Below, piece after piece: positions 1 to 7,951 of a stretch of DNA of 64,000 nucleotides. The notes below the pieces were generated by a model. It was not told where the DNA came from. It saw only the letters and a program-made list of their open reading frames with translations, and did no database searches. The stretch is from assembly GCF_051903065.1 (NCBI RefSeq), contig NZ_CP178438.1; one strand, 5' to 3'. The stretch comes from Escherichia coli. GTDB lineage: Bacteria; Pseudomonadota; Gammaproteobacteria; Enterobacterales; Enterobacteriaceae. Both the position numbers and the translations under genes were made by a program. Positions within the stretch are counted from its first letter, which is position 1. Each line of letters begins with the position of its first letter.

Positions 1-697
1 CAAATAACGCTTTTGCGGCCCCCTGCTCGACTATCCGCCCCTGGTCCATAAAAATCGCCCGGTCCGCAACATCCCGGGCAAAGCTCATTTCGTGTGTCAC
101 AATCACCATCGTGCGCTTTTCCTGCGCCAGCTGACGGATGGTGTTCAGGACTTCGCCCACCAGCTCTGGATCCAGCGCTGACGTTGGCTCGTCAAACAAA
201 ATCACCTCAGGACGCATTGCCAGCGCACGCGCAATCGCAACACGCTGCTGTTGACCGCCAGACAAACGACGTGGATAGCTGGTTTCTTTACCTGCCAGCC
301 CAACTTTTGCCAGCAGCTCGCGAGCGCGCGCCGTGGCCTCTTCTTTCGGTTCGCCTTTGACGATCACCGGCCCTTCAATAATGTTTTCCAGCACCGTACG
401 ATGCGGAAACAAATTAAAGTTCTGGAAGACAAACCCGACGTGCTGACGCAACTGGCGAATCAGCGATTTTTGCTGACTTAATGAACGTGCAGTATCAATA
501 GTGATATCGCCAACGGTGATCGTTCCCGCTTCGGGTTGTTCCAGCAGATTTATGCTGCGTAGCAACGTGGTTTTGCCGGAACCACTCGGACCGATAATTG
601 CCACCACTTCGCCAGGCTTTACCTCGAGGTCGATACCGTGCAGCACCGTCTGACCGTGAAATTTTTTCACCAGGTTCTTAACTTCAATGGCACTCAT
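1..697 (-). CDS. tcyN: Cystine ABC transporter ATP-binding protein, C-terminus beyond window start
   Basis: Minus-strand reading frame open to the window edge; ATG at 697 overlaps the upstream gene's TGA stop (ATGA); translation shows Walker [10 protein letters not shown] and ABC signature LSGGQQQR; synteny with yecS. Confidence 0.8.
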
Positions 698-1362
698 TTT
701 GGTTCTCTCTCCTGGCGATTAAGTTGATTCTCAAAATGGTTCTGCAACGTCGATAATACTGTCGCCATGATCCAGTAGATGAGCGAAGCCGCCAGGTACA
801 TGGTGAACACCTCCAGCGTGCGCGAGGTAATCAACTGCGCCTGACGGAACAGCTCCGGCACCTGGATTGTCGCGGCCAGCGACGTATCTTTTACCAGACT
901 GATAAAGCTGTTCGACAGCGGCGGCAACGCCACACGCGCCGCCTGTGGCAAAATCGCGCGACGCATAGTCTGCCATGGCGTCATACCAATACTGGCAGCT
1001 GCTTCCCACTGGCCTTTATCAATAGAAGAAATGGCGGCGCGAAGCGTTTCGGCAGCATAGGCGGCAGTGTTGAGCGACAGACCAATCATTGCTGACGGAA
1101 TGGGATCTAATTCGATACCAAACTGCGGCAGGCCGTAATAGATCATAAAAAGTTGTGCGATGAGCGGCGTACCACGAAAAATAGAGATATAAAAACGCGC
1201 CAGCCAGCGCACGGGCCAGATTGGCGACAGGCGCATCAGCGCGAGAATAAACCCGAGCAGTAAGCCAAAAAACATGCCGCCGATACTGAGTTGCAGCGTA
1301 TACCCAGCCCCTTTCAGCAGGAACGGCAAGGAATCAATAACCAGTTGTATACTTTCTTGCAT
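694..1362 (-). CDS. tcyL: Cystine ABC transporter permease
   Basis: 222-aa ORF with hydrophobic polar-amino-acid permease features; position between dcyD and tcyN. Confidence 0.85.
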
Positions 1363-1376
1363 GAGCGTTCCCGGAG

Positions 1377-3268
<1,892 letters not shown>

Positions 3269-4794: not shown

Positions 4795-4817
4795 AAAAAA
4801 CCCCGCCGGCGGCGGGG
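4795..4817 (-). terminator. Rho-independent terminator downstream of fliC
   Basis: Minus-strand GC-rich hairpin CCCCGCCGCCGGCGGGG followed by a T-run, about 175 nt past the fliC stop. Confidence 0.55.
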
Positions 4818-4849
4818 AAGCACGTTGCTGACAAATTACCATTCATGTT

Positions 4850-4958
<109 letters not shown>

Positions 4959-4991
4959 TGCCGTCAGTCTCAGTTAATCAGGTTACGACGA

Positions 4992-6290
4992 TTAACCCTG
5001 CAGCAGAGACAGAACCTGCTGAGGAACCTGGTTAGCTTTGGACAGCACGGAGTTACCGGCCTGCTGAACGATCTGCGCTTTAGACATATTTGACACTTCG
5101 GTCGCATAGTCGGCATCCTGAATACGGGACTGCGCTTCAGACAGGTTAGTGGTGGTGTTATTCAGGTTGGTTACAGCAGAGCTCAGACGATTCTGTACCG
5201 CACCCAGAGAAGAACGGAATTTATCAACAGAAGCGATAGCTTTGTCCAATAGTGCCAGTGGGTTCTGAGTTGCAGTACCTTTCAGCTCAGTAGTTGCACC
5301 AGTACCGCTCAGTTGCAGAGTACCGGTATCAACAGCTGTAGTTGGAGCTGCAACACCGCTGTTCGCCAGAACGTCAACACCGGTCGCACCAGCCTGATAG
5401 TTTTTACCCTGAATGGTTACGTAACCAACAGCTGCACCGTTGGCGTCAGAAGTTACTTTGATCAGCTGACCGTTCTGAGTCGCTCCAGTAACACCATTAG
5501 TAGCGTCATCATAGGTGACGTCAGTGGTGTTCAGGTTAACTGCACCAGAGGCCGCGTTTACAGACACAGCATAGTTGTCGCTGCCAGAAGAAACAACGAA
5601 GGTACCAGTACCGTCACCAGCAGAGTCCTGAACTTCGTGCAGGCTCAGGGTGCTTGCATTCACGCCCAGTTTAGTTGCTACTGCGCTCAGGTCCACGTTC
5701 TTCGATGCAGCAGTAGTATTGCCGATCGTAGTGATAGAATCGCTCAGTTTCAGGGAGTTCTGAGAAACAGAGAAGCCGCTCAGACCCAGAGTAGAAGAGT
5801 CTATTTTCTGCAGGTCGATAGAGATAGTCTGGCCATCGTTCGCGCCAACCTGAATTGCCATAGAACCGTTTTTAGCCAGTACGTTCACGCCGTTAAACTG
5901 GGTCTGACCAGAGACGCGGTCAATTTCATCCAGACGAGATTTAATTTCATCCTGAATAGAAGAGAGATCGGAATCAGAGTTGGTACCAGTGGTGGCCTGC
6001 ACGGTCAACTCACGCACACGCTGCAAGTTGTTGTTAATCTCTGACAGCGCGCCTTCTGCTGTCTGTGCTAGAGAAATACCGTCATTGGCGTTACGTGCAG
6101 CCTGAGTCAGACCTTTGATGTTAGAAGTGAAGCGGTTAGCAATCGCCTGGCCCGCAGCGTCATCTTTAGCGCTGTTAATGCGCAGACCAGAAGAGAGGCG
6201 CTCGATAGAAGTCGACAGCGCAGACTGGTTTTTGTTGATGTTGTTCTGAGTGATCAGCGAGAGGCTGTTGGTATTAATGACTTGTGCCAT
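4992..6290 (-). CDS. fliC: Flagellin (432 aa; conserved N- and C-terminal D0/D1 domains, variable central domain)
   Basis: N-terminus [54 protein letters not shown] and C-terminus ...[11 protein letters not shown] are canonical flagellin; the central part is Thr/Ser/Gly/Ala/Asn-rich. Confidence 0.95.
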
Positions 6291-6366: not shown

Positions 6367-6393
6367 TTATCGTCTGGTCACTCACAACCTTTA
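6367..6393 (-). promoter_or_regulatory. Sigma-28 (class 3) promoter of fliC
   Basis: Minus-strand TAAAGGTT, 11-nt spacer, GACGATAA, about 75 nt upstream of the fliC ATG; matches the TAAAGTTT-N11-GCCGATAA consensus with few mismatches. Confidence 0.55.
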
Positions 6394-6535: not shown

Positions 6536-7951
6536 ATGGCTAGTATTTCAACGCTTGGGGTTGGGTCGGGGCTGGACTTAAGCAGCATCCTTGACAGTCT
6601 GGAGGCGGCAGAAAAATCTACCCTGACGCCGATATCAAAACAGCAAAGCTCTTATACCGCGAAACTGAGCGCCTACGGGACGCTGAAAAGCGCACTAGAG
6701 AGCTTCCAGACAGCCAACACAGCACTGAATAAAGCCGATTTATTTACCGCCACCTCAACCACCAGCAGTTCATCGGCTTTCAGCGCCACCACCACGGGCA
6801 GCGCGATTGCCGGGAAATACACCATTAGCGTTAGCCAACTGGCGCAGGCACAAACGCTGACCACAAAAATTAGTCAAAAAGACAGTAAAGCTGCCATCGC
6901 AACCAGCGATAGCGTACTGACCATCCAGCAAGGCGGCGGTAAAGATCCGGTCACGATTGATATCAGCGCGGCTAACTCGTCACTTTCCGGCATTCGCGAT
7001 GCCATTAACAACGCCAAAGCTGGTGTCAGCGCCAGTATCATCAATGTGGGAAACGGCGAATATCGTCTGTCCATCACCGCTAACGATACGGGCAACGATA
7101 ACGCTATGAAACTTAGCGTCAGCGGCGACAGCGCCCTGGAAAGTTTTATGGGTTACAACGGAACGTCGGGTGATAGCAGCAATGGCATGATTGAAAGCGT
7201 CACCGCGCAAAACGCCAAACTGACAGTCAATAACGTTGAGATTGAAAACAGCAGTAACACTATCAGCGACGCGCTGGAAGATATCACACTCAACCTGAAT
7301 GACGTCACCACCGGTAATCAGACACTGACCATCAGTAAAGACACATCCAAAGCTGAAAATGCAGTCAAAGCATGGGTGGATGCCTATAACACATTGCAGG
7401 ATACATTCAGTAGCTTAACCAAATACACCGCTGTCGATGCCGGAGCAGAAAGTCAGGACTCCAGTAATGGAGCATTACTTGGTGACTCCACACTGCGTAC
7501 CATCCAGACACAGCTTAAAACCTTGCTCGCCAATACTCACAGCAGTTCAAACTATAAAACGCTGGCACAGATTGGCATTACCAGCGATGCCAGTACCGGC
7601 AAGCTGGAAATCGCGACCGACAAACTGCAAACGGCACTAAAAAAAGATGCCGCAGGCATCGGTGAAATGTTTATAGGTGACGGTAAAAGTACAGGGGTAA
7701 CTACCGGCATTAGTAGCAACCTGACCAGTTGGCTCTCTTCCACCGGGATAATCCAGGCCGCAAAAGATGGCGTCAGCAAAACGCTGAATAATTTGACCGA
7801 CCAGTACAACGCAGCCAGTGAGCGTATCGATACCTTAATGACGCGCTATAAAGCCCAGTTCACCCAATTAGATGTGTTAATGAACTCGCTTAACTCCACC
7901 AGTAGCTATCTGACACAGCAGTTCGACACCTCAAATAGCAACTCGAAATAA
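6536..7951 (+). CDS. fliD: Flagellar filament capping protein (hook-associated protein 2)
   Basis: 471-aa ORF, divergent from fliC, followed by fliS and fliT. Confidence 0.9.
   Translation: MASISTLGVGSGLDLSSILDSLEAAEKSTLTPISKQQSSYTAKLSAYGTLKSALESFQTANTALNKADLFTATSTTSSSSAFSATTTGSAIAGKYTISVSQLAQAQTLTTKISQKDSKAAIATSDSVLTIQQGGGKDPVTIDISAANSSLSGIRDAINNAKAGVSASIINVGNGEYRLSITANDTGNDNAMKLSVSGDSALESFMGYNGTSGDSSNGMIESVTAQNAKLTVNNVEIENSSNTISDALEDITLNLNDVTTGNQTLTISKDTSKAENAVKAWVDAYNTLQDTFSSLTKYTAVDAGAESQDSSNGALLGDSTLRTIQTQLKTLLANTHSSSNYKTLAQIGITSDASTGKLEIATDKLQTALKKDAAGIGEMFIGDGKSTGVTTGISSNLTSWLSSTGIIQAAKDGVSKTLNNLTDQYNAASERIDTLMTRYKAQFTQLDVLMNSLNSTSSYLTQQFDTSNSNSK

Follow-up and report, generated by a model that had tools for sequence, protein, structure and literature searches.

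The explanation that best accounts for the data, and one that we regard as very probable, is that the Escherichia coli DNA studied here carries fliC in its H39 form and that the H39-specific part of the gene was most likely recombined in from an Enterobacter-type flagellin lineage. Throughout, the window is the whole stretch of 64,000 nucleotides that was analysed (contig NZ_CP178438.1). The variable centre of its flagellin gene is 89.8% identical in DNA to that of Enterobacter kobei, whereas its identity to the E. coli H48, H25 and H33 centres is 46-63% in a forced alignment. An identity of about 90% to an Enterobacter flagellin, in the variable middle of the gene, points to gene exchange between the two genera.

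The gene and its locus

The window gene is a normal flagellar-filament gene of E. coli at the canonical locus. An ORF of 432 aa with an ATG start occupies 4992..6290 on the minus strand, and the matching record carries the RefSeq label 'FliC/FljB family flagellin' (WP_047625206.1). The ORF is intact and, by alignment, full length relative to its relatives. The locus order, from the ORF order and RefSeq, is that of K-12: fliC is divergent from fliDST and upstream of fliAZ, with fliA-fliZ-tcyJ on one flank and the divergent fliD-fliS-fliT-amyA on the other. The first 49,997 bases of the window show 1 mismatch to E. coli 23CRST027 (NZ_AP045789.1), a human faecal isolate from Ecuador. The parts of the gene, and the neighbouring cap gene, are as follows.

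4992..6290, stop codon included, minus strand: fliC coding sequence, H39 allele, 432 aa (ORF list, RefSeq, Pfam, H39 typing)
5868..6278, minus strand: N-terminal conserved helical region, residues 5-141 (PF00669)
5262..5780, minus strand: central hypervariable region, residues ~171-343, predicted to be H39-determining and surface-exposed (no Pfam family; allele comparisons)
5001..5255, minus strand: C-terminal conserved helical region, residues 346-430 (PF00700; 95.9% nucleotide identity to E. kobei over the last 270 nt)
6536..7951, plus strand: fliD, filament cap protein, 471 aa, divergent from fliC (ORF list, RefSeq)

The Pfam matches are strong at both ends of the protein, with Flagellin_N (PF00669) at residues 5-141 (158.9 bits against a cutoff of 26.6, E 9.8e-47) and Flagellin_C (PF00700) at residues 346-430 (108.9 bits against a cutoff of 23, E 1.6e-31); the central ~170 residues (~171-343) match no family in the Pfam scan. 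Residues 5-141 we take to be D0/D1 of the standard flagellin domain scheme. The preliminary description had claimed a 432-aa flagellin allele at this position, with conserved ends around a distinct centre that determines the H antigen, and had given the K-12 flagellin as longer, at about 498 aa; it had left the H type unassigned. ORF, RefSeq annotation and Pfam agree on the allele, and the Pfam matches at the two termini around a centre that has no family bear out the architecture. That length was right as well, as K-12 fliC is annotated as 1497 nt, 498 aa, and the window allele is 66 aa shorter.

How common is this allele in E. coli? The full gene is present at 99.6% identity or better in only nine of 5,426 complete E. 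coli genomes, and 4,508 further genomes of the same set match the conserved ends only. The central 521 nt are found at no less than 99% identity in these nine genomes, and no other genome has a match better than 66%, over 71% of this stretch, so that the centre deserves to be called distinctive, as had been claimed. It is far from identical to the K-12 centre, the identity being 46.2% in nucleotides after forced alignment. E. coli members of the fliC-H39 cluster are like the window allele, with the same locus and 99.5% DNA identity, and the E. coli H39 alleles differ by 0.2-0.5% in DNA among themselves. Residue 245 is Asn in the window protein and Asp in three of the four other aligned E. coli cluster members, a minor variant within the type. 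When other E. coli H39 carriers are compared with the window, fliC shows 6 differences in 1299 positions, versus 7-17 per 1000 in the flanks. The H39 allele is already known, the exact protein is in RefSeq, and overall this is an ordinary feature.

Two other parts of the window may be recorded here. Between yedL and fliE (13882-17297) there is, by annotation of the matching record, a small degraded island with a frameshifted DUF5503 gene, a truncated GNAT acetyltransferase, a leucine-rich-repeat protein gene and an integrase fragment. The gene of 7,983 nt at 49638-57620, which follows a tRNA-Asn gene, encodes a giant surface protein with Ig-like domains. The remaining window, up to yeeO, is by annotation the usual E. 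coli core genome.

Assignment of the H type

Which H antigen does the allele specify? The typing panel was that of the MeltArray E. coli serotyping assay, with a primer pair and a probe per type for 53 H types (PMC11529414, Table S8-5), and each oligonucleotide of the panel was scanned against fliC on both strands. H39-F, H39-R and the H39 probe have 0 mismatches each, and stand in the right order and orientation for a 221-bp amplicon. The matches in the scan start at gene nt 832 (H39-F), 886 (probe) and 1034 (H39-R), and two of the three oligonucleotides, H39-F and the probe, are inside the variable region. The sites are:

5440..5459, minus strand: primer H39-F site, gene nt 832-851 (exact match, PMC11529414 Table S8-5)
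5382..5411, minus strand: H39 mediator probe target, gene nt 880-909 (3' 24 nt scanned, 0 mismatches; the 30-nt target was read directly)
5239..5257, opposite strand to the gene: primer H39-R site, gene nt 1034-1052 (exact match)

None of the other 52 H sets fits. The best of them, H56, has 12 summed mismatches, all in conserved sequence, and the K-12-type set (H48) is not one of the three that match the window gene best. As controls, K-12 was typed as H48, strain 2013C-3264 as H25 and ATCC 8739 as H33, with 0 mismatches each. Because the H39 oligonucleotides match exactly, the other 52 sets mismatch and the controls type correctly, the allele is taken to be fliC-H39, an assignment made from 69 nt of exact oligonucleotide matches together with the controls.

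One might ask if the allele represents a new, unnamed H antigen that lies outside the 53 recognised types. It is rare (nine of 5,426 genomes), and RefSeq gives it no H name. Moreover, the papers on the nine carrier strains, with searches by assembly and protein accession, gave a serotype for none of them (the PapRG-06-5 paper gives ST8525 without a serotype), and the contig records of the sister alleles held no link to a published H39 serotype. Against this stand the exact fit of the H39 primers and probe, in order and with two of three in the variable region, and the correct typing of three controls by the same panel, and we consider a new antigen very improbable. H39 itself is long established, with a reference strain in the MS-H panel; fliC-H39 is known from O157:H39 atypical EPEC, and some published fliC-H39 isolates are non-motile. 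The serotype of the strain would thus be written O?:H39, and as far as the window itself is concerned, the use of the result is confined to assigning the serotype.

Extent of the Enterobacter-like tract

The comparator for mapping the tract was the strain with H25 and the same fliD class as the window. From fliS across fliD and the intergenic region to nt ~190 of fliC the two are 98-100% identical; between about position 6100 and the stop codon they are 56-92% identical, and directly downstream of it the figure is again 94-100%. The identity to E. kobei mirrors this profile, at 82-99% inside the tract and 56-89% outside it.

4992..6100, boundaries +/-50 nt, minus strand: H39-specific, Enterobacter-like tract, gene nt ~190-1299 (sliding identity, 50-nt profile)

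In the 50-nt profile the gene falls into three parts. Over gene nt 1-200 it has 98-100% identity to the H25 and H33 alleles of E. coli, and over gene nt 401-1299 its best matches are those of Enterobacter, at 84-100%. The part between, gene nt 201-400 (window 5891-6090), is only 80-88% identical to every allele examined, those of E. coli H25, H33 and K-12 and of Enterobacter alike; a third parent may be its source. The H39-specific segment is about 1.1 kb long and both of its boundaries are within fliC. Judged by these boundaries, a tract contained in fliC is what would be produced by recombination with the conserved ends of the gene as homology.

The neighbouring fliD is divergent in its own way. 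Compared with K-12, it has a dS of 2.08, a dN of 0.146 and 66-81% nucleotide identity, and is as divergent as fliC, while fliS, fliT, amyA, fliA and fliZ have dS values of 0.03-0.09, which are usual for E. coli. The window's fliD is not Enterobacter-like (72% in nucleotides). Of 5426 complete genomes, 1322 have its class at 95% identity or above, and the H25 strain has it at 98-100%. Since the class is widespread and is found with H25, the fliD allele classes of E. coli are deep and only loosely coupled to the fliC type.

Comparison with other flagellins

The 90%-identity cluster of the window protein includes sequences labelled Enterobacter kobei, E. soli and E. asburiae. These Enterobacter members share the length of 432 aa with the window protein; their alignment to it has no gaps, and amino-acid identity is 95-96%, the centre included. 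In nucleotides, the fliC of E. soli is 91.9% identical to the window gene, the closest sampled, and that of E. kobei 90.8%. The Enterobacter copies are at the syntenic fliD/fliC/fliA position, on contigs of 4.7-5.2 Mb. The E. kobei and E. soli genes, then, have the same length and chromosomal position as the window gene and 91-92% nucleotide identity; they differ from it in belonging to another genus, in their flanks, in 8-9% of their DNA, and in the fit of the H39 oligonucleotides, which have 12 mismatches to the Enterobacter gene. They differ also at the start of the gene, where the first ~200 nt of the window allele are of E. coli type.

Is the gene more alike between the genera than its surroundings? 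The flanking genes amyA, fliT, fliS, fliD, fliA, fliZ and tcyJ of Enterobacter are 66-86% identical in nucleotides to those of the window. Between the window and Enterobacter, dS is 0.34 for fliC (0.275 for the centre and 0.177 for the C-terminus) versus 0.81 to more than 2.6, which is saturation, for the flanking genes, so that synonymous divergence between E. coli and Enterobacter is 2-8 times lower in fliC. It must be kept in mind that dS is generally lowered by high expression and codon bias, both of which apply to fliC. At its conserved ends the gene shows 85-93% identity between genera for alleles of every kind, so that the informative comparison is that of the variable centre.

In a collection of 5.8 billion proteins the nearest full-length relatives are from Enterobacter, at 91-94%, followed by Pantoea/Enterobacter sequences at about 80%, and the nearest other allele of E. 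coli ranks after these, at 79%. When only the central 172 residues were used as the protein query, there were 13 matches, mostly fragments. Among about 100,000 species-representative genomes, an exact 30-mer conserved in the group had 0 matches, and a codon-degenerate search with a group-specific peptide had one, in the MAG of an uncultured Enterobacter, the fliC of which is but distantly related.

Within E. coli, the nearest alleles are H33 (ATCC 8739, 428 aa) and H25 (2013C-3264, 443 aa), which are of a similar size class and identical or nearly so over the first 200 nt; the H25 strain also has the window's class of fliD. Their centres, however, are 48-51% identical to that of the window in amino acids and 60-63% in nucleotides, and so are different antigens. 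The K-12 gene (H48, 498 aa) shares the locus, the promoter type and the 3' UTR with the window gene and is 85-87% identical to it in nucleotides over the terminal domains, but it is 66 aa longer, its centre cannot be meaningfully aligned (46% in nucleotides) and its linked fliD is of another class (dS 2.08).

The yedD side of the Enterobacter loci with an H39-like fliC (loci L002-L006, positions 1-3200) is a variable insertion hotspot that adjoins the flagellar region. Beyond yedD the strains vary: gtrA/glycosyltransferase modules are present in some and a reverse transcriptase gene in one, and in one there is a direct run into fliE-fliF.

Origin and direction of the proposed exchange

What events would account for the H39 gene? 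We propose that the H39-specific part (gene nt ~190-1299) is a member of a lineage of flagellins whose other members are found in Enterobacter (E. kobei, E. soli and their relatives). Entry into E. coli was most likely by homologous recombination within fliC, with the conserved ends serving as homology arms, and after entry the allele would have spread to a few lineages of E. coli, hardly changing any more. Neighbour-joining trees were built from the full protein and from the centre by itself; in them E. coli H39 is one tight clade of sequences 99-100% alike. This clade is sister to E. kobei/E. soli, and both are nested beneath Enterobacter sp. LM3, an unnamed sequence and Pantoea/Enterobacter branches. 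Members of the Enterobacter group differ by 4-13% in DNA among themselves. GC3 is 45.7% in the H39 centre, about 51% in the copies from Enterobacter and 26-38% in the centres of other E. coli alleles. The nesting, the asymmetry in diversity and the weak trend in GC3 together speak for an Enterobacter-like donor and import into E. coli. As even the closest of the sampled Enterobacter alleles differs from H39 by 8% in DNA, either the donor is not among the sampled alleles or the event is not recent.

Might the transfer have gone the other way, with H39 arising in E. coli and being exported to Enterobacter? The evidence on direction is indirect, and the first 200 nt of the gene are typical of E. 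coli. On the other hand, the E. coli H39 sequences make up one tight clade within deeper branches of Enterobacter and Pantoea, and the Enterobacter alleles come from several species and diverge by 4-13%, P0003 by itself being on record in 386 blocks of the collection. In E. coli, moreover, the allele is rare. The GC3 of the H39 centre is also much above that of other E. coli centres. We think export from E. coli unlikely.

One might suppose, alternatively, that no transfer took place, and that H39 is an ancestral polymorphism of both genera kept by balancing selection. Alleles of fliC are very old and are maintained as polymorphisms, the ends of the gene are 85-93% alike across genera for any allele, and the nearest Enterobacter allele remains 8% away. 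An allele as old as the genera, however, should be at least as diverged as its neighbours, and the dS of the centre and C-terminus of fliC, 0.18-0.28, is far below the 0.81 to saturation of the neighbouring genes. Nor would one expect an old E. coli allele to be almost without internal diversity, as H39 is. Shared ancestry of this kind seems to us quite improbable.

That the Enterobacter matches are mislabelled or contaminated assemblies containing E. coli DNA can scarcely be credited: wrong labels do occur in public assemblies, and one member of the cluster is labelled just as Enterobacterales, but the genes are on contigs of 4.7-5.2 Mb whose neighbouring genes, at 66-86% to the window, are not those of E. 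coli, the Enterobacter alleles are 8-13% away from E. coli H39, and several independent assemblies and species agree.

Import of the H39-specific part by recombination within fliC is thus the reading that we retain. A phage or plasmid carrier of H39 fliC was also considered and was rejected, as no H39-like flagellin was found on the records searched: none among the phage records, and none in the plasmid collection, where the best full-length match is 74.8% identical. Several E. coli records of the plasmid collection (matches H83, H90 and H91) do have full-length flagellin genes. One is a 393-kb record whose flagellin is 74.8% identical to H39, and plasmids of about 115 kb have a flagellin that is 53% identical to H39; some other matches are 4.8-4.9 Mb long and look like chromosomes filed as plasmids.

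Expression and structure

Two non-coding features accompany the gene.

6367..6393, minus strand: putative sigma-28 (FliA) class-3-type promoter, TAAAGGTT-N11-GACGATAA, upstream of fliC (consensus match)
4797..4991, minus strand: fliC 3' UTR, 195 nt, with REP-type repeats at 4830-4927 and an intrinsic terminator (terminator scan, Rfam)

The sigma-28 consensus is TAAAGTTT-N11-GCCGATAA. The motif upstream of fliC is the sole match in the 64-kb window, where 0 are expected by chance, and this consensus match identifies a putative sigma-28-dependent promoter. The terminator scan predicts a GC-rich hairpin with its stem at 4801-4817, followed by a T run. An Rfam scan of the locus gave only the REP-derived naRNA4/ES036 in the 3' UTR, with one match at and one below the family gathering score. 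The 3' UTR is 95-98% identical to that of K-12 and is at the position of the K-12 fliX sRNA, which is annotated directly after fliC. In the much-used strain ATCC 8739 (NZ_CP043852.1, locus L007 3339-5764, H33), an IS66-family element with three ORFs, ISEc43, lies in the fliD-fliC intergenic region, upstream of fliC and where the class 3 promoter is located; it could affect flagellin expression.

Transcription of fliC by FliA-RNA polymerase occurs late in flagellar assembly. Flagellin is chaperoned by FliS, exported via the flagellar type III apparatus and polymerised beneath the FliD cap; its terminal helices make up the filament core (D0/D1), including the surface recognised by TLR5, and its central domain faces outward and is read by antibodies as the H antigen. 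H39 FliC would be expected to follow this path, with FliA transcription, FliS chaperoning, type III export and FliD-capped polymerisation, and its central ~170 residues would fold into the outward-facing H-antigen domain. As far as the analysis goes, the mechanism is textbook flagellin, and we noticed no departure from it.

The AlphaFold model of H39 FliC is poor, with a mean pLDDT of 62, and does not suffice for comparing the folds of outer domains; in this weak model the central domain is beta-rich, with a pLDDT of about 80-90 for residues 200-300. A fold search with the weak model gave generic flagellin matches only, with a TM of about 0.2, and the central 172 residues have no sequence relative among PDB structures (best E 0.7). 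Going by the usual domain limits, we take the H39 centre to be about 55 residues shorter than the D2/D3 region of Salmonella flagellin. Salmonella FliC (PDB 1UCU / 3A5X) has the flagellin architecture in common with H39 FliC and gives the best fold matches, with E of about 1e-17, while its sequence match covers the terminal domains. The best PDB match to H39 FliC is the K-12 filament structure, 8cxm.

Significance

It is not settled where the extreme diversity of the variable regions of flagellins comes from. Hu and Reeves (2020, PMC7018530) argue that these regions were acquired from outside the species, which is the accepted model, and state that none of the hypervariable forms of E. coli is like a flagellin of another species and that their source is not known. 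By the comparisons above, the H39/Enterobacter pair is a specific counter-example to the statement of no resemblance, and it is a candidate answer to the question of source. Sharing of a flagellin by H39 and Enterobacter is not described in the literature that was searched, the coverage of which was incomplete. We lean, if only somewhat, to the view that H39 is the first E. coli hypervariable form with an identifiable outside gene pool (the Enterobacter cloacae complex and E. soli), imported by recombination in fliC. As one form common to two genera, with about 90% DNA identity and with recombination boundaries mapped inside fliC, the pair can be dated and sampled.

There are practical consequences as well. 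In metagenomes and mixed samples, Enterobacter flagellin could give cross-reactions in H typing based on sequence or on mass spectrometry, and it may likewise cross-react with an H39 antiserum.

A weaker version of the H39 pattern is seen in an H33-like flagellin of E. coli, whose centre is 74% identical in amino acids to that of Pluralibacter and 70% to that of Erwinia pyri. An H25-like E. coli flagellin groups with a flagellin of 'unclassified Escherichia', at 57%. The proteins in these two groupings are P0063, P0053, P0069, P0131 and P0065. Judging from such sequence groupings, relatives in other species may exist for several of the short flagellin types of E. coli. The sharing of a variable region between genera is a modest but concrete addition to what is known, and the H39 and H33-like cases suggest that neighbouring enterobacterial genera are a working reservoir for the H antigens of E. 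coli.
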